From Enterobacterales bacterium (GTDB taxonomy: Bacteria > Pseudomonadota > Gammaproteobacteria > Enterobacterales > GCA-002770795): 62,679 nt of DNA. Below are positions 49,163 through 61,523 of this stretch, piece by piece; positions within the stretch are counted from its first letter, which is position 1, and the number at the start of each line of letters is the position of its first letter. Position numbers and translations under genes: made by a program. Location: NCBI GenBank assembly GCA_041556195.1, contig JBFFIY010000005.1:1-62679 (forward strand), in the 5' to 3' direction. Below the pieces are notes generated by a model. It saw nothing but the letters and a program-made list of their open reading frames with translations. It ran no database searches and was not told the origin of the DNA.

Positions 49163-52100
49163 ATGCCTATGAAAAACAACCTTAAAAAATTATCCATTGT
49201 CGGAGCCAGGATGTCCGCTCTGCTTGGGCTTATAGTCTTATTCGGTTGGTATACTCATAATGAAATACTCATACAATTTTCTCCATCTTTTGTTCCCATG
49301 CAATACAACACCGCTCTTGGGTTTTTATTATGTGGTTTAGGTATATTTTTTATTGATAGAAAAAATCATAATATTGGGGTCGCTTGTGGCTCCTTAGTTT
49401 TGTTACTGGGATTGTTAACACTACTAGAGTACATATTGGGTTTAGAATTTGGCATAGATCAGTTTTTGATGGAACACTATCTCGCAGCTAATACATCCCA
49501 CCCCGGCAGAATGCCCGCCAATACAGCACTTTGTTTTTCATTAGCTGGAATTGCCCTGATTCTCGTCAGCATTAATAAAGTCCCTAAAAACCACTCTCTA
49601 TTAATTGGCATTTCAGGTTCCTTAATTCTGGGAATAGCCATTATTGCACTATCCAGTTATATGGTTAGACTTAAAACAGATCACGGATGGAATGAACTAA
49701 CATTCATGGCCATCCATACGGCCCTTGGTTTTATCATTCTTGGTATTACCATTTTAGCAATTGCATGGTTACAAGAGCTAAAAACACTTTCTCACTTACC
49801 TTCCTGGCTTCCTATACTAATTGGTATTGGTGTAATGACCATTATAATCAGCTTATGGCAAGCTCAGGAGTCTCATAAAGCCTATGAAGTTAAGTCCATA
49901 CAAAACCATAACTCTTCAGGTGAGCAGAGTCTCATCAACCAGGCACTGTTAATGGCGGGAATCATTTTCTCATTAGCTATTGCATTAACAACCTATCTGG
50001 CCCAATCGGCAAGAAGTCGCGCACAAGAATTATTATTAGCAAAAGATAAACTTGAATCTGAAATTCATGAACGCAAACGTATTGAACATGCTCTGCGTTT
50101 AAGTGAAGAACAATTTAGATTAGCCATTTCTCTTGCTCCCGCTCCTACCATGCTCCATGCTGAAGATGGTGAAATCATTCAAATAAACAAAATATGGACT
50201 GAAATAACGGGCTACGACCCCAATGACATTCCTACTTTGAAAGATTGGACAGCAAAAGCTTATGGTGAAGAGATGGATAATATGTGTGAATATATTGAAT
50301 CTATCTTTGATCGCAATACAAAAGATCATGATGGTGAGTTTCAGGTACGTACAAAATCAGGGGAATACAGACATTGGGATTTTGCATCAAGCCCCTTAAG
50401 TCAACTCCCTGACGGACGTCGGTTAATCATCAGTATGGCCACGGATATAACCGAACGTAAATTAGCCGAAGAAACCATTCATGAAAATACAGAACGTCTT
50501 AGAGCTATCTATGATCAATCTAACGATGCCATTTTATTATTAGATTTTGAGAACGAAAAAATTATTGATTTTAATCAAATGGCGGTTACTTTACTGGGGT
50601 ACCCACCTAATGAGTTAGTCGGCCTTTCTATTAAAGATATCCATCCCTATGATATGGATAGATTTCAACATTTTGCTTCATCTATCCTGGAGCATGGTAC
50701 AGGTAGCACAGAAGAACTAACTTGTCTTACTAAAGAGAGAAGCTATATTCCTGTCGAAATTTCAGCCTCTCCCATACAAATTAAAGGTAAAGTTTATCTG
50801 CTCGCTCTGGTTCGAGATATTTCAAAACGAAATCAAGTATTACAAGCTCTTCGCGATAGTCAGGAAAACCTGCAAACAATACTTAATTCTTTAGGGGACG
50901 CTGTTATTGCAACAGATACCCATGGCAATGTGACACAAATAAATCCAATAGCACAACATCTTACTGGATGGAGATTAGATGAAGTAAAAGGAAAAAAATT
51001 ATCTCTTGTATTTAAAATCATCAATAGAGAAACACGAAAAATAGTTGAAAGTCCCGTGGATAGAGTACTGCTAACTGGAAAAAGCCTTGAACTAGCCAAC
51101 CATATTATCCTTATTGCTAAAGATGGCACTGAACATCTAATCTCCGATACTGCTGCACTCATTGCTGACGACAAGGGAAATGTATCTGGCGTGGTACTCG
51201 TTTTCAGGGATGTAACTGAACAATATCAGCTTGAAGAAGAATTACTCAAAACAAGAAAGCTTAAATCCGTTGGTGTATTGGCTGGAGGGATAGCTCATAA
51301 TTTCAATAATATCTTCACTGGCTTATTTGGTAATATTGAATTGGCCAAAATGAAGCTTCCAGAAAATCATCCAGTCTACCATCACCTGGAAATAGCCAAC
51401 CAGGAGTTAGATAGAGCTAAAAATCTTACTAACCAACTGCTCACATTTGCTAAAGGTGGAGAACCTCTTTTAGAAGTTATAGATTTTAGCAATCTACTTC
51501 AAGACTCCATTAAGTTTAATTTAACGGGAAGTAGTGTAAAACCACATTTTGATATCTCGGATAATTTGTGGCATATCAAAGCTGACAAAGGACAACTTGC
51601 CCAAGTTCTGGCCAATCTTGTACTCAATACCAAACAGGCTATGACCTCCAGTGGCAATGTCTACATAACGGCCAAAAACGTAGAAAAACATAACGAACTT
51701 TTATCCCATGATTTTTCAGGTAAATATGTCAAATTTATAATTCGAGATGAAGGGTGTGGCATAAAACCAGCCGATTTAGAAAAAATATTTGATCCCTACT
51801 TTACCACCAAAGAAAATGGCAGTGGTCTGGGTCTTGCAACGGTTCATAGCATTATAAAAAAGCACAGTGGCCATATAAGGGTTAATTCCAAATATGGAGT
51901 TGGCACAACTTTTTCGTTTTATCTACCTGCAAACATTCCATCTGACTTGAATTTACCAACCCCCACCAGCAACTCAAAGACAAAGACACCCTTAGTTTCT
52001 GGATATATTCTGGTAATGGATGATGACGACATGGTCAGAGATTTAACCAGCGAAATGCTCATTTCACTTGGTTACAATGTTGATACAGCTATTAATGGAG

Positions 52101-52378
52101 AAGAAGCTATAAATAAATATATTCATTCACAAAAATTAGAAAATCCATTTGACATCATCATCATGGATTTAACCATTCCCGGTGGTATGGGTGGTAAAAA
52201 AGCCATTGAAAAAATTCTTGAAATAAATGATAGGGCAAAAGTGATAGTCTCTAGCGGCTACTCAATTGATCCGGTCATGGCCAACTACCAAAGTTATGGT
52301 TTTAAAGGACGAATTGCAAAGCCTTTTAAAAGAGAGGAAATCAGTCAGGAATTAGCAAGAGTCATAAATCTTGCATAA
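49163..52378 (+). CDS. Hybrid sensor histidine kinase / response regulator (multi-TM N-terminal domain, three PAS domains, HisKA-HATPase, REC)
   Basis: 1071 aa with about 8 N-terminal TM segments and PAS repeats. The H-box is GIAHNFNNIFTG, the G-boxes are DEGCGI and GSGLGLA, and the C-terminal receiver has MDLTIPGGMGG. Confidence 0.9.
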   Translation: MPMKNNLKKLSIVGARMSALLGLIVLFGWYTHNEILIQFSPSFVPMQYNTALGFLLCGLGIFFIDRKNHNIGVACGSLVLLLGLLTLLEYILGLEFGIDQFLMEHYLAANTSHPGRMPANTALCFSLAGIALILVSINKVPKNHSLLIGISGSLILGIAIIALSSYMVRLKTDHGWNELTFMAIHTALGFIILGITILAIAWLQELKTLSHLPSWLPILIGIGVMTIIISLWQAQESHKAYEVKSIQNHNSSGEQSLINQALLMAGIIFSLAIALTTYLAQSARSRAQELLLAKDKLESEIHERKRIEHALRLSEEQFRLAISLAPAPTMLHAEDGEIIQINKIWTEITGYDPNDIPTLKDWTAKAYGEEMDNMCEYIESIFDRNTKDHDGEFQVRTKSGEYRHWDFASSPLSQLPDGRRLIISMATDITERKLAEETIHENTERLRAIYDQSNDAILLLDFENEKIIDFNQMAVTLLGYPPNELVGLSIKDIHPYDMDRFQHFASSILEHGTGSTEELTCLTKERSYIPVEISASPIQIKGKVYLLALVRDISKRNQVLQALRDSQENLQTILNSLGDAVIATDTHGNVTQINPIAQHLTGWRLDEVKGKKLSLVFKIINRETRKIVESPVDRVLLTGKSLELANHIILIAKDGTEHLISDTAALIADDKGNVSGVVLVFRDVTEQYQLEEELLKTRKLKSVGVLAGGIAHNFNNIFTGLFGNIELAKMKLPENHPVYHHLEIANQELDRAKNLTNQLLTFAKGGEPLLEVIDFSNLLQDSIKFNLTGSSVKPHFDISDNLWHIKADKGQLAQVLANLVLNTKQAMTSSGNVYITAKNVEKHNELLSHDFSGKYVKFIIRDEGCGIKPADLEKIFDPYFTTKENGSGLGLATVHSIIKKHSGHIRVNSKYGVGTTFSFYLPANIPSDLNLPTPTSNSKTKTPLVSGYILVMDDDDMVRDLTSEMLISLGYNVDTAINGEEAINKYIHSQKLENPFDIIIMDLTIPGGMGGKKAIEKILEINDRAKVIVSSGYSIDPVMANYQSYGFKGRIAKPFKREEISQELARVINLA

Positions 52379-52472
52379 CATTTCAATATCCCCACTAAAG
52401 CTAAAACCAGAAGTCCTTCTTAACAGTTAAATTAGAATTAAAGCTGTCAAAAAATTATCAAATAAAAAGTTA

Positions 52473-52489
52473 CTTAAGTTTCCCTTAAT
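52473..52489 (+). promoter_or_regulatory. PmrA/BasR-type direct-repeat box (CTTAAG-tttcc-CTTAAT)
   Basis: Hexamer-N5-hexamer direct repeat. A -10-like TAAACT follows 11 nt downstream (52501-52506). Confidence 0.5.
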
Positions 52490-52542
52490 AAACTTTATTC
52501 TAAACTTGAGTAACATCCATTACCGCTGGGAGCTATAAACTA

Positions 52543-52700
52543 GTGAGTTCATTGGCCAAACCTATTAGTGACAACAAGTTTTATCGTGAGTTAACTCACT
52601 GTTTTGAAACGACTTTCCCTGAATTGTCTGAATTTATTAAACGACGATATCAAGAGAAAAACTCATTCCAATTCCGGTCATTTGTTCCAAATGCAATATG
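52543..52700 (+). pseudogene. Decayed 5' fragment paralogous to the thermostable-hemolysin-family gene at 53752
   Basis: A 52-codon GTG ORF (..SDNKFYRELTHCFETTFPELSEFIKRRYQEKNSFQFRSFVPNAI*). It aligns without gaps to residues about 11-54 of the 233-aa protein (HSNKLSCELTHCSQNGFEQISNFISQKYMEVHQAKLTHFLDWQL). 12 of the 34 positions from ELTHC onward are identical. Confidence 0.6.
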
Positions 52701-52763
52701 AAAGACAGATATGGTCTGAAAGAAACTTTAACCGTTGCTAAAAATATTATAACAGGATAAAAA

Positions 52764-53528
52764 ATGTCAACTTTGAAACCTCAAACACCGCCAGCTCAAA
52801 TCTATTTTGTGTGGGAACTCCCGGTCAGAATATTTCATTGGCTTAATGTGCTTTGTATCATTGGGCTTGCGGCTTTGGGTATCGTTTTACTAAACAATAA
52901 AGCGCTTGGAATAAGCTTGGAAGGAAAGATTTTAATAAAAACTATTCATGTTTACATTGGATATTTTTTTATCATTAATCTATTAATGAGATTTGTCTGG
53001 TGTTTTTTCTCAAACAAATATTCCAGTTTATCTGGAATTACACCTTTCACAAAACAGTATTTTTCATCCTTAAAAACATATTTGGTATCCATAAAATCCA
53101 AAGTTCCAAAACAATACCTGGGTCACAATCCCTTAGGAAAGTTAATGATTACCTTTCTTTTTTTTATGCTGTCGCTACAAGCAACCACAGGTTTGATTTT
53201 AGCTGGAACCGATCTCTACATGCCACCTTTTGGTGAAAAAATAGCTGAATTTCTCGTTATTAAAAACACCGATCAAAAACCCGTGCTTAAGTTAGTTAAA
53301 GCAGGCTCTAAAGACAACATTGATCCTACAAAATATAAAGAAATGAGAGCCTACCGAAAACCAGTGATTTCAACTCACGTTTATGGATTTTATATTTTAT
53401 TGGGTGCCATTTTTATCCATATTTTAGCGGTAATTATTGCCAACCGTCGTGAAAATACAGGGTTAATCTCAGCCATATTCACCGGAAAAAAGTCTTTTAC
53501 TTCAAAACCTGTAGATATCGATGATTAA
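52764..53528 (+). CDS. Cytochrome b561 / Ni-Fe-hydrogenase-type b-cytochrome family membrane protein
   Basis: 254 aa with 4 TM segments. His residues sit in conserved positions (RIFHWLN, KTIHVY, GHNPLGK, FIHILAV). Confidence 0.8.
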   Translation: MSTLKPQTPPAQIYFVWELPVRIFHWLNVLCIIGLAALGIVLLNNKALGISLEGKILIKTIHVYIGYFFIINLLMRFVWCFFSNKYSSLSGITPFTKQYFSSLKTYLVSIKSKVPKQYLGHNPLGKLMITFLFFMLSLQATTGLILAGTDLYMPPFGEKIAEFLVIKNTDQKPVLKLVKAGSKDNIDPTKYKEMRAYRKPVISTHVYGFYILLGAIFIHILAVIIANRRENTGLISAIFTGKKSFTSKPVDIDD

Positions 53529-53581
53529 GATCAGTATTCAGCTGATAAAACGACTTCAAGACGCTTTAATTCAAGGCTGAA

Positions 53582-53672
53582 ATTCTAAATAACCTCAACT
53601 CGGGATAAGACAGGTCAACCAATTATATGACTAGATGACCTATTTTATCCCGAGTAATTACAATTATTTAGA
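53582..53672. repeat. Family-B short variant (hairpin element), probably also the terminator of the cytochrome b gene
   Basis: ttctaaataa-cctcaactcgggataagacaggtca...tgacctattttatcccgag...ttatttagaa. It shares the AACCTCAACTCGGGATAAG terminus with 37485-37715. Confidence 0.7.
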
Positions 53673-53674
53673 AA

Positions 53675-53691
53675 CCTTAAGTCAACCTTAA
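53675..53691 (+). promoter_or_regulatory. PmrA/BasR-type direct-repeat box (CTTAAG-tcaac-CTTAAG)
   Basis: Perfect hexamer-N5-hexamer direct repeat. A -10-like TATAGT follows 11 nt downstream (53703-53708). The ATG lies 61 nt downstream. Confidence 0.55.
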
Positions 53692-53751
53692 GTTTGCATC
53701 ATTTATAGTTACTATATCGTAGAGACAATTTAGTGGTTTGGAGTAACTCAG

Positions 53752-54453
53752 ATGCTAACAAAACAACCAGAACATACCCACTCCAACAAGCTAAGTTGTG
53801 AGTTAACTCATTGTTCTCAAAATGGTTTTGAACAAATATCAAATTTCATCAGCCAAAAATACATGGAAGTGCATCAGGCAAAACTTACACATTTTCTTGA
53901 TTGGCAGTTGACTTTAAGTAATGAAACAACATCATTTACAAAAAACAGTTCAGCTCCATTATCAACAGTAGGTTTAGCCAATGCGGCAGATAAAACCCTC
54001 TATCTTGAACAATATCTTGATAGCCCCTTAGAAGAGCATTTATCTGGTTTGTTTCAACGTAAAATTGAACGACATCAAATCATTGAAATTGGCAATATGG
54101 CCTCTATAAAAGGCATGGGCAGGTTGATGGTATTAACCATGATGAAATATATTGAAGTTAACCATATTGATTACATGGTCTTTACCGCCACCCCTGCATT
54201 ACTCACTATCATGTATAAATTGGGGCTTTGTCCCGTTTCGCTGGCATTAGCTGATCCTGATAAACTCACTGACACTGACACCAACTGGGGACATTATTAC
54301 GATGATAAGCCGGTTGTTGTAGCAGGTAAGGCTTCAACGGCATTGGAACAGCTTAAACGTTGTCCAGAAACAAGAGAATTATTCAACCAATTGCCCACGC
54401 CTCCAGTACACATCCAGGGCGTAGCTCAAAATAAAGACGCTCTATTTGCATGA
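53752..54453 (+). CDS. Thermostable-hemolysin (T_hemolysin) family protein, probably an acyltransferase-fold enzyme rather than a toxin
   Basis: 233 aa with family hallmarks LEQYLDSPLEE, IIEIGNMAS, VFTATPAL, LALADPDKL and WGHYYDDKPVVVAG. Confidence 0.85.
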   Translation: MLTKQPEHTHSNKLSCELTHCSQNGFEQISNFISQKYMEVHQAKLTHFLDWQLTLSNETTSFTKNSSAPLSTVGLANAADKTLYLEQYLDSPLEEHLSGLFQRKIERHQIIEIGNMASIKGMGRLMVLTMMKYIEVNHIDYMVFTATPALLTIMYKLGLCPVSLALADPDKLTDTDTNWGHYYDDKPVVVAGKASTALEQLKRCPETRELFNQLPTPPVHIQGVAQNKDALFA

Positions 54454-55916
54454 GTTTGATATTAAAGGCACTGGCTGAGTCTGAACCGTCTAAAATTATC
54501 GTTAATGACGGTGCCACAACCTTAACTGCCAGTAGTCTTAACCAACAAATTTCTATTATGGCTAATTGGTTAAACAAGCAGCAGCTTAGCTCTGTCGCTT
54601 TGCTTGCCGATAATAATTTACTCTGGTTGATAGTAGATTTAGCCTGCCTTAAATTAAATCTGGTATTAATACCCGTTCCCGCTTTTTTTTCTGCTGAACA
54701 ACAAAAACATGTTTTAAACGATTCTGGAGCAGAACTTTTACTAACAGATGGCACTGAACAAACATCAGGCATAGTGAATTTTAACGCAAAAAGATTGAAA
54801 GCAACATCTGTTCCACTCCCAAAGAACTGTGCCAAAATTACATATACTTCAGGAACTACTGGAAACCCTAAAGGTGTTTGCTTAAGCCTGGAACAAATGG
54901 AAGCTGTAGCAAGTTCAATTGCTGATGTCGCTAAAGAAGCCGGGGTTAACACCCATTTATGTCTTTTGCCCCTGGCAGTTTTATTAGAAAATATTGGTGG
55001 GATCTATACGCCTCTATTAGCAGGTATTAAAATTGAATTAAGACCACTATCCCAGCTGGGTTTCACCAACACCGGCTTAAATGATATCAATGTCTTAATT
55101 CAAACTCTGAATGAATGCCAACCAGAAAGCTTTATTTTGGTCCCACAAATGTTGCCAATTTTCATAGAAATAGCGCTTCAAAGCCCCCCCCCGGACAATT
55201 TAAAACTTATTGCTCTAGGTGGAGGTAAAACGGCTACAGAAACATTACAAAAAGCTATCAAACTTGGCCTTCCTATTTACGAAGGATACGGATTATCAGA
55301 ATGTGCTTCCGTGGTAGCAATGAACCGCCCATCATCAAATCGACCAGGTAGCGTTGGAAAAGTTTTGCCTCATGTACAAGTGCAAATTGCTCAGGATGGT
55401 GAAATTTCTATCAACGGAAATAGCATGTTGGGTTATCTGGGCAGTTCTGGTCATGATGGAAAAATCACTACTGGTGATATTGGCCATATGGATAAACAAG
55501 ATTATCTTTATATCGAAGGTCGAAAAAAGAATACCATTATTACAGGAATGGGTAGAAATGTTGCACCCGAATGGGTTGAATCAGAACTGATGGCTAGTGG
55601 GTATTTTGATCAAGTTATGGTTTACGGCGATGAACAAATCGGCATTAATGCACTTTTAGTATTGAATGAATTAGTAGAAAAAAAGCTGGTGGAAAATGAC
55701 TTGGTTGGAATAAAAACAAGCACTGACATTGAAAGAGAACTTAAAACCACGATCAATAAAGTCAACAACAAACTACCGGATTATGCGCGAATTCAATCCT
55801 TTGAATTAAGTTTACCTTTTACAAATAATGAATTGACTCCCAATGGGCGTTTAAGGCGTCAACAAATTTTAAATAACAGGGCTTCTTTTTTAAGGCAAAA
55901 TGAGCTCGCCAACTAA
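54450..55916 (+). CDS. AMP-binding (ANL-superfamily, long-chain acyl-CoA-synthetase-like) adenylating enzyme
   Basis: 488 aa with YTSGTTGNPKGV (A3), GYGLSE (A5), TGDIGHMD (A7), GRKKNTII (A8) and a C-terminal ELTPNGRLRR. There is a 4-nt overlap with the upstream gene. Confidence 0.9.
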   Translation: MSLILKALAESEPSKIIVNDGATTLTASSLNQQISIMANWLNKQQLSSVALLADNNLLWLIVDLACLKLNLVLIPVPAFFSAEQQKHVLNDSGAELLLTDGTEQTSGIVNFNAKRLKATSVPLPKNCAKITYTSGTTGNPKGVCLSLEQMEAVASSIADVAKEAGVNTHLCLLPLAVLLENIGGIYTPLLAGIKIELRPLSQLGFTNTGLNDINVLIQTLNECQPESFILVPQMLPIFIEIALQSPPPDNLKLIALGGGKTATETLQKAIKLGLPIYEGYGLSECASVVAMNRPSSNRPGSVGKVLPHVQVQIAQDGEISINGNSMLGYLGSSGHDGKITTGDIGHMDKQDYLYIEGRKKNTIITGMGRNVAPEWVESELMASGYFDQVMVYGDEQIGINALLVLNELVEKKLVENDLVGIKTSTDIERELKTTINKVNNKLPDYARIQSFELSLPFTNNELTPNGRLRRQQILNNRASFLRQNELAN

Positions 55917-55950
55917 TTAATTAAAAACTGAACCTAAAAAGGAAAAGCTT

Positions 55951-56607
55951 TTGAGTTTCTTTGAAAAAATCATTTCATCGACAATTGATGAAAAAAAATA
56001 CCTTTATAGTGCTCCCCTACTGGTAAATTGCCAGAAGGGTGTTATCACTCTACCCCAGTATGTCACTTTTTTAAGCCAGGCTTATCACCATGTAAAGCAC
56101 ACCGTCCCCTTGCTCATGGCAACAGGTTCTCGATTGACCGATAAATATGAATGGTTAAGGAAAGCCATTGCAGAGTACATAGATGAAGAAATTGGCCATG
56201 AAGAGTGGATATTAAACGATATATCAGCCTGTGGTGCTGATGCGGAATTGGTTCGAAATTCACTCCCGGCACCTGCAACTGAATTTATGGTTTCCTATGC
56301 TTATGATAGCGTTAGCAGGCTAAATCCAGCCAGTTTTTTTGGTATGGTCTATGTGCTTGAAAGTACCAGTGTAGAGTTAGCAACACCGCTTGGACAAATC
56401 ACTCAAGACAGTCTAACTTTGCCTCCAACAGCTATGAGTTATTTGTATAGTCACGGAAGTTTAGATATCAAACACATGGACTTTTTTAAATCTTTAATGA
56501 ATAAAATAGACTCCCCTGATGACCAACAGGCCATAATCCACATGGCCAAAAGAATGTATTTTCTCTATGGCAATATGTTTCGTTCTATCACCGATAATGA
56601 GGTATAA
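55951..56607 (+). CDS. Heme-oxygenase-like di-iron (TenA/PqqC/CADD-type iron-containing redox enzyme) family protein
   Basis: 218 aa, all-helical. Candidate ligand motifs are EEIGHEEW (ExxH), VLES and SLDIKHMD (DxxH). TTG start with AAGGAAAA about 8 nt upstream. Confidence 0.7.
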   Translation: MSFFEKIISSTIDEKKYLYSAPLLVNCQKGVITLPQYVTFLSQAYHHVKHTVPLLMATGSRLTDKYEWLRKAIAEYIDEEIGHEEWILNDISACGADAELVRNSLPAPATEFMVSYAYDSVSRLNPASFFGMVYVLESTSVELATPLGQITQDSLTLPPTAMSYLYSHGSLDIKHMDFFKSLMNKIDSPDDQQAIIHMAKRMYFLYGNMFRSITDNEV

Positions 56608-56610
56608 GCG

Positions 56611-57381
56611 ATGAAATGGATTTTATTAACGGGCGCAACTGGTGGTATCGGACAAGCCATGGCCAAAGCTTTATCTAATAATGGTTACTCCTTGATTTTA
56701 AATGCCCGTGATGAGAAACGTTTAAAATCTGTCATCGCTTCTTTAAAGGGTGAAAATCGAATATTGAATGCAGATATTTCTACCAATGAAGGTAGAAAAA
56801 AAATTGACACTTTTTTAGATGAAAAACAAATTAAATTGGATAAAGTAATTTTTAATGCCGGCATTAATGATTTCTCTCTATTTTCTAATCAAAATTCATC
56901 TGCCATTATCAATCAACTTGAACTTAATTTACTCTCCCCTATTTTATTAACCCAATTATTGATACCACATCTGGCTGAGAAGGCACATTTAGTTTATATC
57001 GGATCAACCTTTGGAGCTATTGGGTTTCCTGGTTACGCCTCATATTGTGCCAGTAAATCAGGTCTTAGAGGATTTGCCCAGGCAATGGGAAGGGAGTTAT
57101 CTGACCAACATATAAACGTAAGCTATTTTGCTCCCAGAGCGACGGATACAGAAATGAACACTGAAAAAGTTGTCTCTATGAATAAAGAGTTAGGCTCTCA
57201 CATGGATAAACCTGAAGTAGTAGCCAATGAATTACTAAAACTCATTAAAAGCCCGGTTCCTGAGAAATTTATAGGGTATCCAGAAAAAATTTTTGCCAGA
57301 CTAAATGGTTTACTCCCCAAATTTGTCGGTAATCAAATTATAAAGAATCTAAATACAATTAAACTATTTGCCTCGAAATAG
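56611..57381 (+). CDS. Short-chain dehydrogenase/reductase (SDR)
   Basis: 256 aa with TGATGGIG, NAG and the Ser...YCASK catalytic motif. Confidence 0.9.
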   Translation: MKWILLTGATGGIGQAMAKALSNNGYSLILNARDEKRLKSVIASLKGENRILNADISTNEGRKKIDTFLDEKQIKLDKVIFNAGINDFSLFSNQNSSAIINQLELNLLSPILLTQLLIPHLAEKAHLVYIGSTFGAIGFPGYASYCASKSGLRGFAQAMGRELSDQHINVSYFAPRATDTEMNTEKVVSMNKELGSHMDKPEVVANELLKLIKSPVPEKFIGYPEKIFARLNGLLPKFVGNQIIKNLNTIKLFASK

Positions 57382-57505
57382 ATTTAGCTGCGAGTTGCGA
57401 CAAAAATGCAGGAGCAATTTTTGAACAGCTTTAGCTGGCCCGTAGGGCGAAAAACAGGGATGTTTTGAGTAATTTCGAGCAAATAACAACAAGTAGGAAA
57501 ATAAA

Positions 57506-58213
57506 ATGACTTTAATCTCAAAAATTAATTTAAGGGTTCTCCGCTGGATACTTTCATTCACGTTACTTAGTATCACGACTATTAGTTCAAGTCTTGTTTT
57601 TGCGGATGGAATAACAACGTCAAAAAACCAAAATCCACAACAGGTTGTCAATCAACTGATGAAACAATGGGCTATTATTAACTATCAAACTGATAAAAAA
57701 CAGCAAGAAAAAGCTTTTAAAACGCTGGTAGAACAGGCACATGAATATTCAGAAAAACTTGAAAATTCTGCTGAAATTAAAATATGGAACGGAATTATCT
57801 TATCAACTTATGCTGGCGCAAAAGGCGGCTTAGGCGCACTCAAATATGTTAAAAAAGCTAAAAAATCTTTAGAAACTGCCCTTAAGCTCAATCCTTCTGC
57901 ATTAAATGGTTCTGCTTATACCAGTTTAGGGAGCCTTTATTATCAAGTACCCGGTTGGCCGATTGGTTTTGGTAGTGATAAAAAAGCTGAAATGTTTTTA
58001 CAACAAGCTTTATCAATCAACCCTGATGGTATCGATCCAAACTATTTTTATGCTGACTTTCTATTTGAAGATGGAAAATATGCTAAAGCCCTACAACATG
58101 CCAATAATGCCTTAAAAGCAGCTGATCGTCTTAATCGACCTATTGCCGACAAAGGTCGAAGAGAAGAATTAGCTAAGCTCGTGAGTAAAATAGAAAAAAA
58201 AATGTCTCGTTAA
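57506..58213 (+). CDS. Secreted tetratricopeptide-repeat protein
   Basis: 235 aa with a signal peptide and TPR-like helices (AEMFLQQALSINPDGIDPNYFYADFLFEDGKYAKALQHANNALK). Confidence 0.75.
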   Translation: MTLISKINLRVLRWILSFTLLSITTISSSLVFADGITTSKNQNPQQVVNQLMKQWAIINYQTDKKQQEKAFKTLVEQAHEYSEKLENSAEIKIWNGIILSTYAGAKGGLGALKYVKKAKKSLETALKLNPSALNGSAYTSLGSLYYQVPGWPIGFGSDKKAEMFLQQALSINPDGIDPNYFYADFLFEDGKYAKALQHANNALKAADRLNRPIADKGRREELAKLVSKIEKKMSR

Positions 58214-58257
58214 TTTATTAGTATAAACTATAAGAAATAATTAAATAGAAAAAACAT

Positions 58258-58950
58258 ATGCGCTTATTATTGGTAGAAGATGATGAATTGCTTGGTGAAG
58301 GTGTTAAAGATGCCTTAATCCGTGCTCAATATGCAGTTGACTGGGTCATGGATGGCGAAGCAGCATTGCATGCTATTGAAGTAGAATCATTTGATCTCAT
58401 TGTACTTGATTTAGGCTTGCCAAAAATTGATGGCCTGACAGTCCTTAAGCAGATGCGCCATAAATCTATTAATACCGCTGTTATCATATTAACCGCTAAA
58501 GATGCACTTGAAGATAGATTGGCTGGACTAGATGCCGGTGCAGATGATTATGTTAATAAACCATTTGAACTGGCCGAGCTTAAAGCTAGAATTAGAGCAA
58601 TAAGCAGGCGCGTTGCAGGTACAGGTAACCCTACGCTTAAAGTGGGCCCATTAACCCTTGATCCTAAATCGGCAGAGGTTACAAAATCCGGTAAACCAGT
58701 TTTGTTATCTCGAAGAGAATACCAATTTTTACACCAACTTATGCAACACTCCAATGAAATACTCTCCAAAGAACGTTTATTTCAAGGAATTTATGATTGG
58801 TCTGATGATGTATCCAGCAATACAGTCGATGTTCACATACATAACCTGAGAAAAAAACTCGGTGAGAACCTAATCAAAAATACTCGCGGTTTAGGTTACT
58901 CGATTGATACGGCAAAGCATACAGAAAAACATACAGGAAACGATTGTTAA
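58258..58950 (+). CDS. OmpR-family response regulator, PmrA/BasR/QseB subgroup
   Basis: 230 aa. Collinear with PmrA/QseB: LLLVEDD, LIVLDLGLPKIDGL, ILTAKD, GADDYVNKPF and VDVHIHNLRKKLG. Confidence 0.9.
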   Translation: MRLLLVEDDELLGEGVKDALIRAQYAVDWVMDGEAALHAIEVESFDLIVLDLGLPKIDGLTVLKQMRHKSINTAVIILTAKDALEDRLAGLDAGADDYVNKPFELAELKARIRAISRRVAGTGNPTLKVGPLTLDPKSAEVTKSGKPVLLSRREYQFLHQLMQHSNEILSKERLFQGIYDWSDDVSSNTVDVHIHNLRKKLGENLIKNTRGLGYSIDTAKHTEKHTGNDC

Positions 58951-60359
58951 TGTTCTCTTTACAGGCAAAACTGAGTTTAGTTATTGGAGGATTCGTTTTA
59001 ATCATCCAACTCCTCACAGCCTCGTTAAGTTATACCCATGCGGCACATGAAATTGAAGAAGTCTATGATGCAGAACTCTCAAGAGTCGCTCGATTAATGA
59101 TGGGACTGATGGGCGAAGAAATGGATGAACGCCTTTCACAACAAATTCAAGAAGCCTTAAATACTTTTGATTCCAGTTTGCTACCCGATAAAGATTTAGG
59201 GATTTTAAGTGTCGAGGAAGAAGGCACACCAGCAGGACATGTTTATGAAAAACTCACACTTTTATCGGTATGGGAAAATAATAAACTTTTATTTTCAACC
59301 CACCCCATCGCTCAAATAGAATCACCTGTAGCAGGTTATGCCTGGTTAGAAATCAATCAGGAACCATGGAGAGGGTTTTCAATAAAAGAGGCAAAACATA
59401 ACAGAATCATACTGGTTGCCCAAGATGGACACATACGAGAAGAAATGGTTAAAGAAGTCGCGTTAGATCCGGAACTGTTTAAATTACTTTTTGGCGTTCC
59501 ATTGGTGGTATTGATTGTTTGGTTCGGAACAGGTTTAGGTCTTCGTTCTCTGCATAAACTCAGTCAACAGGTGTCAGAAAGAAATGCTGACAATCTGATT
59601 GCTGTTGATTTACCCGGCATTCCTAAAGAGTTATCAACTTTGGTTTTTACCCTGAATCAATTTATGGAAGTCTTAGATAAGGTTTTCAAAAGAGAACGGC
59701 GTTTTACCGCCGATGCTGCCCACGAATTAAAAACACCATTGGCAGCTTTGCGTATACATGTCGAAAACTCACTAGAAGCAAAAACAGAACAACAAAGAAA
59801 CAAATCTTTGCGCTCTGTTTTACAAGGCATTGATAGAATGTCGCGTGTCGTGAAACAACTACTCACGTTGTCAAGACTTGAACCCAAGCAATTCTCACAA
59901 TCTAAATTTAAAAAAATATCCCTGAATTTTTGCATGGAAGATATCCTTGATGAAATAAAACGCTCTGCCGAAAAAAAATCCATAAAGCTAGTTGTCTCTG
60001 GTGAGGCGCATATATTTGGCGACAGAGCAAGCCTTGAAACAATGCTCAGGAACCTGTTGGACAATGCCATTCAATACACACCAGAAAATGGAATAGTCTC
60101 TGTTCAGTTTTTACAAGAATCCTGGACAAGCAGACTCATCATTGAAGACTCTGGACCTGGGATCGCTGAAACTGAAAGAGCAAAAGTTTTACAGCGATTT
60201 TATCGCACACCGGGTAGCAAGGGCTCTGGAGTTGGCTTAGGGTTATCGATTATCCATAGAATTGTTCAACTTCACCAGGCGGAACTTACCCTTGAATCCA
60301 GCCAGCTCGGTGGATTAAAGACTGAAATTAAATTTTCCTCATCGGTTAAATCAGAATAA
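58950..60359 (+). CDS. Sensor histidine kinase (QseC/PmrB-like architecture)
   Basis: Two TM segments flank a periplasmic domain of about 150 aa. Has HAMP, the H-box AAHELKTPLAAL, the N-box LLDNAIQYT and the G-box GSGVGLGLSI. I place the start at the ATG overlapping the RR stop (TAATG). The ORF track opens at a TTG at 58944. Confidence 0.9.
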   Translation: MFSLQAKLSLVIGGFVLIIQLLTASLSYTHAAHEIEEVYDAELSRVARLMMGLMGEEMDERLSQQIQEALNTFDSSLLPDKDLGILSVEEEGTPAGHVYEKLTLLSVWENNKLLFSTHPIAQIESPVAGYAWLEINQEPWRGFSIKEAKHNRIILVAQDGHIREEMVKEVALDPELFKLLFGVPLVVLIVWFGTGLGLRSLHKLSQQVSERNADNLIAVDLPGIPKELSTLVFTLNQFMEVLDKVFKRERRFTADAAHELKTPLAALRIHVENSLEAKTEQQRNKSLRSVLQGIDRMSRVVKQLLTLSRLEPKQFSQSKFKKISLNFCMEDILDEIKRSAEKKSIKLVVSGEAHIFGDRASLETMLRNLLDNAIQYTPENGIVSVQFLQESWTSRLIIEDSGPGIAETERAKVLQRFYRTPGSKGSGVGLGLSIIHRIVQLHQAELTLESSQLGGLKTEIKFSSSVKSE

Positions 60360-60362
60360 ATC

Positions 60363-61523
60363 ATGAAAAATATAACCCCCGCACTATTACTCATTATCGG
60401 CTTACCTTTAACAGCAGATGCAGATGAATTTAACTGGGGTTTTGACTTTTATGGAGATCTACGCGCCGGCTATTTTACAATAAATAGAGATGACAGAAAT
60501 GATACCATAAATACTACAGACGAATTCCGCAGCAGAATTCGCCTTGGGCTCAAAAAAGATTTAGGTTATGGCTGGAGTTTTGCCAGTCGATTTGCAGGAC
60601 GTTATAGTACCAAAGAAGGCAATCATGGTTTTACTTTCGACGACCATACATTAAAAACAGATGGGTTGAGCCTTGGTCGTTCAACACTGGATGAAAGTTA
60701 CTTTCTTTATCAATCCAATAAGCAATCAAAAAATCAATGGTCATTACAATTTGGCCGATTCCAGACAAAATATGAACTACCCGGTGTTGCCAAAAAATCT
60801 CTTAGCCGAAATGAAAGCCCGAATACAGACATCACCTGGACAGATGGTATTTCATTTCGTTCTAAAATATTTTCAGACTGGGACTCTAATGTTATTTTGC
60901 AATATAACCCCAAAGATAACCCGACAACCGTTCAACGCGCTCCCCTTGATTTTGAAGAAGCGCCTTTAACCGCTTTCTGGCATATACAAAATAAGAAAAA
61001 ATGGGGACCCATTGTGTATCGTGGTTTTAATATCACCCATATCCCTGATGCACTTCCAACCGTTACTGCACAGGGTAATTTAAACAATCCTGGAAAACTG
61101 GACAACTACACAGCAATAACCGCCGCTGCCGCTGCCAAATGGCCAATTGGAGAGCATGGCATGTCATTTATGTTAGCGTCAGAAATTGGCCTGGCTCTAA
61201 ACCCACCTGAAAACAGCTTAACCAAACTCCCGGCAAATGGAGACAGCGATAGAACAGCTTATCAAGTCACCTTTAATCTCATCAACTTCGCACCGAGCCA
61301 TAGTATTGGACTGGTTTTGGGACAGGCAGACGCAGGTTGGTTAATATCCCCTGACTTCACCCCAAATCAACAGCTAACAGAGCTTCGTTACAAATGGCAA
61401 ATACATAAAAAACTCAAACTTGAGGCCAGATTCAGACAAAGAAAAGATGTGGATTTACAAGTTAATAAGCTCAAAAAACGTGAAGATCAGGATTTTTATT
61501 TCAGATTAACTTATAAGTTTTAG
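60363..61523 (+). CDS. Outer-membrane beta-barrel (porin-like) protein, uncharacterised
   Basis: 386 aa with a signal peptide and alternating beta-strand patterns. It ends in the C-terminal YFRLTYKF signature. It starts 4 nt after the kinase stop. Confidence 0.7.
   Translation: MKNITPALLLIIGLPLTADADEFNWGFDFYGDLRAGYFTINRDDRNDTINTTDEFRSRIRLGLKKDLGYGWSFASRFAGRYSTKEGNHGFTFDDHTLKTDGLSLGRSTLDESYFLYQSNKQSKNQWSLQFGRFQTKYELPGVAKKSLSRNESPNTDITWTDGISFRSKIFSDWDSNVILQYNPKDNPTTVQRAPLDFEEAPLTAFWHIQNKKKWGPIVYRGFNITHIPDALPTVTAQGNLNNPGKLDNYTAITAAAAAKWPIGEHGMSFMLASEIGLALNPPENSLTKLPANGDSDRTAYQVTFNLINFAPSHSIGLVLGQADAGWLISPDFTPNQQLTELRYKWQIHKKLKLEARFRQRKDVDLQVNKLKKREDQDFYFRLTYKF

Follow-up and report, generated by a model that had tools for sequence, protein, structure and literature searches.

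Two direct-repeat elements in the stretch of DNA analysed here (62,679 nucleotides, hereafter the window) hold up as PmrA-type boxes on their sequence, and comparison with other genomes links them to a nearby two-component system resembling PmrA/QseB and to the operon to which it belongs. The second box heads a conserved seven-gene cassette whose last two genes are the response regulator and sensor kinase themselves, and the first box seems to be a duplicate of the cassette promoter that was captured in front of a cytochrome b561 gene. The explanation as a whole, in which both boxes are activator sites for the response regulator, the second drives the cassette as one unit and the first arose from it by duplication, is one that we consider probable.

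Box 1 (CTTAAG-tttcc-CTTAAT) lies at 52473..52489 on the + strand, where the initial annotation had placed it, and is a direct repeat whose period is 11 bp. For box 2 (CTTAAG-tcaac-CTTAAG, + strand) the sequence had been read correctly, but its position is 53676..53692 and not 53675-53691, one base further to the right; it consists of AACCTTAAGT twice, an exact 10-nt repeat with a period of 11 nt. Exactly 11 nt after each box stands a -10-like hexamer on the same strand, as had been described: TAAACT (52501..52506) in the first promoter, P1, and TATAGT (53704..53709) in the second, P2. Neither promoter has a -35 element; in P1 no -35-like hexamer lies 16-18 nt 5' of the -10, the site is not scored as a sigma-70 promoter, and the -35 position is occupied by the box. 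According to the definition of a PmrA-type box taken from PMC3973317 and PMC10570014, both elements have two direct YTTAAK/CTTAAT-like hexamers separated by N5, and in each predicted promoter the box, 11 nt from the -10, takes over or overlaps the site of a -35 element. The start codons assigned to the two boxes were a GTG at 52543, which is indeed 54 nt after box 1, and the ATG at 53752, which is the correct codon but lies 60 rather than 61 nt after box 2. No further intergenic candidate was found in the window, and the earlier statement that there is no third intergenic box of this type holds even when one mismatch is allowed.

The genes behind box 2 are all encoded on the + strand: a T_hemolysin-family protein (53752..54453; PF12261, 152.1 bits against a cut-off of 27), an AMP-forming acyl-CoA ligase (54450..55916), a heme-oxygenase-like di-iron enzyme of the Haem_oxygenas_2 type (55951..56607, with profile matches to 3DDE, MboA and CADD), a short-chain dehydrogenase/reductase or SDR (56611..57381; NF006565, 299.7 bits against a cut-off of 238), a TPR protein whose hydrophobic N-terminus may be a signal peptide (57506..58213), a response regulator of the OmpR/PhoB family and PmrA/QseB group (58258..58950) that is the candidate box-binding activator, and a QseC/PmrB-like sensor kinase (58944..60359) with a HEIEE motif directly after its first transmembrane segment. 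The positions of the regulator and kinase and their strand, the same as that of the boxes, are as first described. Their depiction as a regulator 4.5 kb away from an orphan operon has to be abandoned, as they form the end of the same cassette and no + strand terminator or promoter was found within 57300-58300, which spans the SDR-TPR and TPR-regulator gaps. The seven genes headed by box 2 may therefore be read as one transcription unit, and the box 2 promoter probably autoregulates the two-component system too. The first gene product was also considered as a hemolysin or pore-forming toxin and this was rejected: its AF2 model (pLDDT 76.8) has an enzyme fold, that of the GNAT family, and the best Foldseek matches of the model were the N-acyl amino acid synthase FeeM (TM 0.61-0.66 on the target) and AHL synthases. 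A search of the PDB gave no sequence relatives. The protein is named here as a predicted GNAT-fold acyltransferase.

The cassette order T_hemolysin-ligase-di-iron enzyme-SDR-TPR-regulator-kinase recurs in GCA_050289245.1, Pseudomonas and Hahella, and the same cassette was seen at about 50 metagenome loci with GC contents of 34-72%; most of the 80 metagenome loci carry the seven genes, and the regulator-kinase pair is joined to the operon in most. The TPR protein is among the conserved members. Full-text literature searches returned no description of this cassette, and a scan of genome contigs with the response regulator returned scattered OmpR-family paralogues of 33-43% identity without synteny. 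The initial annotation had proposed that the box be checked for conservation upstream of orthologous operons. A forward box within 300 nt 5' of the T_hemolysin gene is perfect at 29 of 54 loci and has one mismatch at a further 18 (47/54 in all), against a chance background per equal stretch of 0.004 for a perfect box and 0.017 for one mismatch, or about 0.02 for up to one mismatch. Among 43 non-redundant orthologous promoters, TAnnnT follows the box after exactly 10 nt in 30 (the window has 11 nt) and a TT after each hexamer is also conserved, both being positions that were not used for selecting the boxes. Relatives of the cassette bear extra boxes 5' of genes for an EptA/PmrC-like phosphoethanolamine transferase, an LPS kinase and other proteins. 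A "self-contained" regulon, as first proposed, is therefore unlikely, and these additional genes point to envelope or cation-stress physiology.

The initial annotation had tied box 1 directly to the cytochrome b gene. The box 1 promoter stands, but the start codon that follows it belongs to a 52-aa ORF (52543..52701, + strand, GTG start, with a GGGAG ribosome-binding site at 52528-52532), which would lead the cytochrome b unit, and the link is found in one genome. The gene itself encodes a cytochrome b561-family membrane protein (52764..53528, + strand; PF01292, 97.7 bits against a cut-off of 30.1) whose ATG at 52764 sits 275 nt after the box, and no + strand promoter-like site was found between the two. 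The 52-aa product matches the N-terminus of the window's own T_hemolysin protein (BLASTP, 14/38 identical, E=4e-8), and an NK..ELTHC segment common to both is missing from the T_hemolysin N-termini at the other 49 loci. It is thus a paralogous fragment of that N-terminus, and the two boxes are for this reason not independent. When the promoters are aligned at the boxes, the hexamers match at 11/12 and the -10 at 4/6 positions, and the flanks (18/60, 2/11 and 12/46 matches) are near the 28% expected from composition. This pattern suggests a local duplication of the promoter and about 50 codons, of which only the hexamers and the -10 outlived divergence.

The duplication leaves room for box 1 to be a decaying relic, with the cytochrome b561 gene transcribed independently of the two-component system either by read-through out of the hybrid kinase gene that lies upstream or by a promoter that escaped recognition. 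The ORF is after all a gene fragment, and cytochrome b adjoins the cassette in this genome only among the loci compared, being unlinked to it at every other locus; the sole other locus with a cytochrome b homologue, L062, has a one-mismatch box match upstream that lacks a properly spaced -10. Against this, the hexamers, the N5 spacer, the 11 nt to TAnnnT and the ribosome-binding site have been kept while the flanks were randomised, the fragment has remained open over 52 codons in AT-rich DNA, and no alternative + strand promoter was found. A strong hairpin also closes the unit right before box 2: the long stem-loop at 53598..53655 (+ strand, 29-nt arms) folds at -27.2 kcal/mol (z=-8.0; 0/200 shuffles fold as well). 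It has no U-tract and is a probable transcript end or insulator. We regard the relic as unlikely while allowing it the largest share among the alternatives, and prefer box 1 as a duplicated promoter that now serves the cytochrome gene.

A 14-bp palindrome, GTGAGTTAACTCAC, in the ORF (52586-52599; 13/14 positions kept at 53798-53811) was evaluated as a CRP-core site (GTGA-N6-TCAC) and as the hairpin of an attenuator, and set aside. Folding is weak for both hairpins (-8.3 and -3.5 kcal/mol; z=-0.4 for the second), the palindrome is missing at the other 49 loci, and it falls in the codons for ELTHC, a segment within the first beta-strand of the AF2 model; shared ancestry and codon bias are sufficient to account for it. 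An Rfam scan of 52300-53900 returned nothing meaningful. In P. aeruginosa, cytochrome b561 (yceJ) is a target of the Cpx envelope-stress response, and no description of a link between BqsR and cytochrome b561 was found in the literature searched.

The response regulator has K. pneumoniae PmrA (4S04/4S05) as its best solved relative (E=4e-48, 167 bits). Of the DNA contacts of that protein listed in PMC4660055 (T187, N188, V192, H195, N196 and R210), five are identical in the window's regulator and T187 is replaced by S, and the protein thus has PmrA/BasR-like DNA-reading residues by alignment. Of 40 aligned cassette regulators, 38 retain N188 and 39 retain V192 and likewise R210, with H or N at position 196; the conserved recognition helix, SN[AT]xEVHxH[HN]LRKK, together with R210 corresponds to the residues with which K. 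pneumoniae PmrA reads the TAA bases (PMC4660055, PMC10570014). The earlier designation of the system as PmrA/QseB-type is right as to group and wrong if taken to mean an enterobacterial equivalog, with scores below the NCBIfam cut-offs for PmrA/BasR (NF007928, 241.4 bits against 330), QseB (NF007663, 204.7 against 345) and QseC (NF007664, 235.6 against 475). QseC is nevertheless the best NCBIfam match of the kinase, and many database homologues of the regulator are labelled QseB. The HExxE motif occurs in 11 of 33 cassette kinases within a generally conserved juxtamembrane segment and is a weak hint of metal sensing.

Since several regulators share this class of site (PmrA, BqsR/CarR and Legionella PmrA), the boxes could be functional and yet be read mainly by another PmrA/BqsR-type regulator elsewhere in the genome, of which only 62 kb is visible, with the adjacent system having other targets or engaging in cross-talk. 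Direct repeats of the TTAAG type, 11 bp in period, serve at least three characterised regulators (PMC3973317, PMC4358008, PMC13522522), and boxes are kept at some loci that have no adjacent regulator (among them Mangrovibacter L085, L154 and L103). The association nonetheless favours the adjacent regulator: a box with at most one mismatch is present at 31/32 loci where the regulator is adjacent and at 4/9 where it is not (Fisher p about 1e-3 to 4e-4, values that overstate the evidence because the loci are not phylogenetically independent). The apparent sole exception among the former, L113, has CTTCAG-N5-CTTCAG followed after 10 nt by TAGAGT and a regulator with an altered recognition helix, box and helix having changed together. 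At L158 the regulator-kinase pair is transcribed divergently from the operon, and the region between them has one box facing each way, towards the operon and towards the pair; the joining of the pair to the operon at most loci argues in the same direction. An outside regulator as the principal reader is, in our judgement, doubtful, and the cassette's own regulator is retained as the candidate.

Repression from the boxes is more improbable still. BqsR can repress where its box overlaps promoter elements (PMC13522522), but basal activity should be low because neither promoter has a -35 element, and the fixed distance from box to -10 at 30/43 loci is the geometry of activation by PmrA or PhoB (PMC10570014). 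That the matches are a chance motif in an AT-rich genome of 38% GC, a possible refutation raised at the outset, has next to no probability left: the bare pattern is modestly enriched in the window (four strand-hits at three sites against 0.71 expected, with 1/100 shuffles reaching four, which is weak as sole evidence), but a perfect box followed after 10-11 nt by TAnnnT occurs twice against 0.04 expected, two such architectures were reached in 0/200 dinucleotide-preserving shuffles, and the box stands before orthologous operons even in genomes of 72% GC. Both full-architecture sites are intergenic and oriented toward + strand genes; the third site (55026-55042, minus strand) is inside the ligase coding sequence and has no -10.

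In the proposed mechanism, a phosphorylated dimer of the response regulator (58258-58950) would bind both boxes, each standing where its promoter, which has a -10 hexamer, lacks a -35 element, and because of this placement the regulator would act as an activator, in the manner of PmrA or PhoB. P2 would drive a single unit that begins with the acyltransferase gene, passes through ligase, di-iron enzyme, SDR and TPR protein and ends with the genes for regulator and kinase, and the cassette would be positively autoregulated because these last two genes are included. P1, arising by local duplication of P2 together with ~50 codons from the start of the T_hemolysin gene, would now drive the leader ORF and the cytochrome b561 gene, placing the cytochrome under the same signal. 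As with PmrB, that signal could be envelope stress or a metal cation. A more speculative extension, to which we give a small chance, is that the cassette is a self-contained signal-and-sensor circuit, in which an N-acylated small molecule would be the joint product of ligase, FeeM/LuxI-like acyltransferase, di-iron oxidase and SDR, to be handled by the TPR protein in the envelope and sensed by the kinase, with positive feedback via the box. Were this so, a PmrA-type regulator would be the basis of an autoinducer system resembling quorum sensing, and cytochrome b561 would have been wired into it here by promoter duplication.

The site class and its mechanism are already well known and the novelty lies in the target, a widely distributed and uncharacterised cassette (Pseudomonas, Hahella and many marine and soil Gammaproteobacteria) with its own PmrA-like two-component system and conserved operator. 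It gives a handle on the misnamed "thermostable hemolysin" family of predicted acyltransferases, on the chemistry of the heme-oxygenase-like di-iron enzyme and on the signal of the kinase. The window would also represent a clean natural case of regulon growth via promoter and leader duplication, in which operator and -10 alone appear to have been retained by selection.

The closest known systems include the enterobacterial PmrA/BasR boxes (pbgP/arnB, ugd and pmrCAB of Salmonella, E. coli and Klebsiella), where CTTAAG/xTTAAT hexamers 5 nt apart replace the -35 as they do here (PMC3973317, PMC10570014); box 1 fits the Salmonella form, CTTAAG-N5-xTTAAT (PMC3973317). The Klebsiella pbgP box lies about 3-4 bp nearer to its -10 (PMC10570014), which would be roughly 8 nt compared with 10-11 nt here. 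The main target also differs, being the acyltransferase/ligase/di-iron/SDR/TPR operon instead of arn or ept genes, and the boxes before EptA/PmrC-like and LPS-kinase genes in cassette relatives recall the enterobacterial targets. Box 2 is a perfect match to the TTAAG-N6-TTAAG site of P. aeruginosa BqsR/CarR, whereas the second half of box 1 is TTAAT. The bqs operon regulates itself, and the sites of BqsR overlap that at which polymerase binds (PMC4358008, PMC13522522). The bqsPQRST context differs from that of the cassette, and BqsS senses Fe(II) by RExxE, in contrast to the HEIEE of the window's kinase. BqsR/CarR was represented in the PDB search by a single entry, 8gc6, which scored 98.7 bits against 167 for full-length PmrA, a comparison that is not like for like because 8gc6 is a 123-residue receiver-domain chain. 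E. coli-type QseBC provides the best kinase match (QseC, 235.6 bits), and the pair here has no ygiW-type neighbour.

A Legionella/Coxiella PmrA regulon was suspected from the 38% GC and the TTAA repeats and was rejected because ValS, whose nearest named relatives are from Nitrincola, Aestuariirhabdus, Oceanospirillaceae and Shewanella (66-69%), places the host with the Oceanospirillales, and it is described here as Oceanospirillales-like on that sequence comparison. Legionella PmrA shares this class of site, and there are no icm/dot genes among those annotated in the window. The Legionella LciRS-LciE island also pairs a local two-component system with a conserved element set at a constant distance from the -10 of the neighbouring gene, but its element is an inverted repeat (ATTACAAnnTTGTAAT), its signal is copper and its target is one effector gene. 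FeeM and the CoA-dependent LuxI-type synthases BjaI and RpaI share the GNAT fold of the T_hemolysin model, at an identity to FeeM and AHL synthases of 8-13%, a query-normalised TM of only about 0.5 and under a Pfam label of "thermostable hemolysin"; the ligase adjoining the T_hemolysin gene could supply an acyl-CoA donor.

Two direct repeats of the PmrA type (YTTAAK-N5-YTTAAK) were located on the forward strand by sequence reading and pattern search: box 1 (CTTAAG-tttcc-CTTAAT, 52473-52489) where the initial annotation had placed it, and box 2 (CTTAAG-tcaac-CTTAAG, 53676-53692) shifted rightward by one base from the 53675-53691 it had given. In box 2 the 10-nt unit AACCTTAAGT recurs exactly, with a period of 11 nt. 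As originally noted, a -10 hexamer begins exactly 11 nt past each box on the same strand, TAAACT (52501-52506) in promoter P1 and TATAGT (53704-53709) in promoter P2; P1 then leads through a GGGAG Shine-Dalgarno sequence to a GTG start at 52543, and P2 through GGAG to an ATG start at 53752. No -35-like hexamer was read 16-18 nt from the -10 at either promoter, and neither was among the promoters reported by a sigma-70 scan.

Chance occurrence of the motif had been raised as an objection. The bare pattern is only modestly enriched, 3 sites in the window giving 4 strand-hits where 0.71 were expected, the third site (55026-55042, minus strand) lying within the ligase gene and lacking a -10. The full architecture, a perfect box followed at 10-11 nt by TAnnnT, occurs twice against 0.04 expected, a count reached in 0 of 200 dinucleotide-preserving shuffles, and both sites are intergenic and oriented toward forward-strand genes. 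Allowing one mismatch added no intergenic candidate within the window, in agreement with the earlier reading, which found no third box of this kind in the other intergenic regions.

Gene assignments over 49163-60359, made from Pfam and NCBIfam, place a 52-aa ORF (52543-52701) and a cytochrome b561-family gene (52764-53528) behind box 1. Box 2 precedes a seven-gene cassette encoding a T_hemolysin protein (PF12261, 53752-54453), an AMP-forming ligase (54450-55916), a heme-oxygenase-like di-iron protein (55951-56607), an SDR (56611-57381), a TPR protein (57506-58213), an OmpR-family response regulator (RR, 58258-58950) and a QseC/PmrB-like kinase (58944-60359). The database call of the T_hemolysin protein (P0001, 196 aa) begins at Met38, affecting 53752-53862; a Pfam match from residue 23, a predicted AF2 strand at 14-20 and the paralogous fragment described below support the longer ORF from 53752. 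A hybrid PAS histidine kinase (49163-52378), which combines several PAS domains with HisKA, HATPase and a receiver domain, stops 95 nt upstream of box 1 and is not kept beside the cassette in other loci. A porin-like gene (60363-61523; weak Porin_4 and Porin_5 matches) starts 4 nt past the kinase stop codon and, given this gap, may share the kinase transcript. ValS is 66-69% identical to that of Nitrincola, Aestuariirhabdus, Oceanospirillaceae, Shewanella and Hahella, which identifies the host as an uncultured Oceanospirillales-like gammaproteobacterium and rules out an enterobacterium or a Legionella relative.

The hemolysin-family protein lacks close relatives (31-34% identity at best), and related loci were reached through contigs carrying homologues of RR with 54-57% identity. 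In GCA_050289245.1, the T_hemolysin, ligase, di-iron, SDR and TPR genes are followed directly by the regulator and kinase, and a perfect CTTAAG-tcttc-CTTAAG, the sole perfect match in 20.6 kb, lies 59 nt upstream of the first gene. The seven-gene order also occurs in Hahella, where the promoter reads CTTAAG-ggttc-CTTAAG, 10 nt, TAACTT, and in Pseudomonas. The Pseudomonas site (L167:3664-3700) is degenerate, CTTCAG-actcc-GTTAAG with two mismatches, 10 nt, GATACT, the spacing being retained. In Mangrovibacter the two-component system is missing beside the five biosynthetic genes, yet a box, TTTAAG-tcttt-CTTAAT, is present. Scanning metagenomes with the di-iron protein as query gave 80 further loci, and a tblastn map recovered the cassette in nearly all sufficiently long contigs, usually with the regulator and kinase attached. 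Conservation of the box upstream of orthologous operons, proposed earlier as a check, was borne out: among the 54 loci whose sequence reaches 120 nt or more upstream of the first gene (genomic GC 34% to 72%), a forward box within 300 nt was perfect in 29 and had one mismatch in 18 (47/54 together), against a background of 0.004 and 0.017 per equal stretch. The consensus of 43 non-redundant promoters was CTTAAGnTTnnCTTAAGntT, with TAnnnT exactly 10 nt past the box in 30 of them; neither the TT that follows each hexamer nor this -10 hexamer was part of site selection.

Across these loci, box presence tracks an adjacent regulator, the box being present in 31/32 loci with an adjacent RR vs 4/9 without (Fisher p about 1e-3 to 4e-4, generous values since the loci are related). 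The sole exception (L113:5804-5836) has the variant CTTCAG-gtttc-CTTCAG, 10 nt, TAGAGT, and its regulator has an altered recognition helix, SNTIEVHISAIRRKL, with HISAIRR in place of HIH[HN]LRK; this single case looks like a matched change in box and helix and is a possible natural specificity switch. In another locus (L158:5689-5738) the regulator and kinase genes diverge from the operon, and the common spacer has two boxes facing opposite ways, the one pointing at the regulator being followed by TATAAT. The comparative evidence thus ties the two-component system to the operon as part of it, and not as the separate neighbour first described; we consider the link of box 2 to this system and the cassette highly probable.

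The 52-aa ORF behind box 1 is homologous to the N-terminus of the T_hemolysin protein (14/38 identical, E=4e-8), and the two have in common a lineage-specific NK..ELTHC that no other locus has in its N-terminus. These likenesses indicate that box 1 arose nearby as a second copy of the cassette promoter and about 50 codons, so that the two boxes are paralogous. In a gapless alignment anchored at the boxes, P1 and P2 agree at 11/12 hexamer and 4/6 -10 positions, vs 18/60 in the upstream 60 nt, 2/11 in the 11-nt gap and 12/46 in the 46 nt past the -10, composition alone predicting 28%. That the operator and -10 alone were retained argues for selection on both. The ORF also contains a 14-bp perfect palindrome, GTGAGTTAACTCAC (52586-52599), which is CRP-core-like (GTGA-N6-TCAC) and is missing from other loci. 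It codes for ELTHC, predicted beta-strand 1, forms weak hairpins, and is kept at 13/14 positions at the paralogous place in T_hemolysin (53798-53811), no stretch of the duplicated coding part being better conserved; it may have a role at the DNA level.

The tblastn map showed no cytochrome b561 gene beside the cassette in any other locus. Between box 1 and the ATG at 52764 we found no alternative forward promoter and no convincing terminator, and a stem-loop (53598-53655; 29-nt arms, -27.2 kcal/mol, z=-8, no U-tract), which could be a terminator, insulator or repeat element, closes the unit past the cytochrome b stop, just ahead of box 2. On these grounds the proposed control of the cytochrome b unit by box 1 is plausible and somewhat favoured, as an arrangement private to this genome.

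Several relatives have a second box with a correctly spaced -10 adjoining the cassette. It precedes an EptA/EptB-type phosphoethanolamine transferase in L107 (3910-5639), a Kdo/WaaP-family LPS kinase and methyltransferase in L119 (4093-5627), and, in L141 (401-959), a 175-aa protein rich in Asp and His that has DNDNHDSGS repeats and a hydrophobic N-terminal segment. Those in L107 and L119 are envelope functions of the classic PmrA type and argue for a regulon that extends beyond the cassette, so the claim that it is self-contained is unlikely to hold as a general description.

No PDB entry is related in sequence to the T_hemolysin protein. Its AF2 model (pLDDT 76.8) has a GNAT fold that best matches the N-acyl amino acid synthase FeeM (TM 0.61-0.66 on target) and also AHL synthases, among them the CoA-dependent BjaI and RpaI; the di-iron protein matches 3DDE, MboA and CADD. 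We infer that the ligase would supply acyl-CoA, the GNAT enzyme would move the acyl group onto an amine, and the product would be tailored by the di-iron oxidase and SDR. On this view, the name 'thermostable hemolysin' would refer to hemolysis by a lipid product and not by a protein toxin. This product may be an envelope lipid, in keeping with the EptA-type and LPS-kinase genes that adjoin the cassette in relatives, or else a signal to which the co-encoded kinase responds.

The core of the initial interpretation is right, with four corrections, concerning the place of the two-component system in the operon, the paralogy of the boxes, the regulon and the regulator's identity. In the mechanism we propose, the kinase would phosphorylate RR, a dimer of which would occupy both half-sites in head-to-tail fashion, roughly from -40 to -24, and activate promoters that lack a -35 element, as structurally demonstrated for PmrA (PMC10570014). 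P2 would transcribe the five biosynthetic and envelope genes and, as no forward-strand terminator was found in 57300-58300 (the SDR-TPR and TPR-RR gaps), probably also the regulator and kinase, giving positive autoregulation; P1 would bring cytochrome b561 under the same signal. The box-and-regulator mechanism is already well established, and the new part is the conserved cassette and its operator, of which our literature search found no description; both appear undescribed.

The best NCBIfam models for RR are PmrA (241 bits), RppA and QseB (205 bits), all scoring under their equivalog cut-offs, so that it is a member of the PmrA/QseB group, as first proposed, and an orthologue of neither, including enterobacterial PmrA. 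Its closest solved structure is K. pneumoniae PmrA with its box (4S04/4S05, E=4e-48), in which bases are read by N188, N196 and R210 and contacted hydrophobically by T187, V192 and H195 (PMC4660055, PMC10570014); the corresponding residues here are S187, N188, V192, H195, N196 and R210. As published, the PmrA box consists of a hexamer pair separated by 5 nt in place of the -35 element, and box 1 is identical, letter for letter, to the Salmonella form CTTAAG-N5-xTTAAT (PMC3973317, PMC10570014). Box 2 also matches the P. aeruginosa BqsR/CarR target TTAAG-N6-TTAAG (PMC4358008, PMC13522522), so the site class is common to several regulators, among which sequence alone cannot name the binder. The kinase carries HEIEE (residues 35-39) immediately past TM1, similar to the HExxE motif with which Salmonella PmrB binds iron (PMC4358008), a likeness found in only 11/33 cassette kinases, that of Pseudomonas (HEIAE) included.
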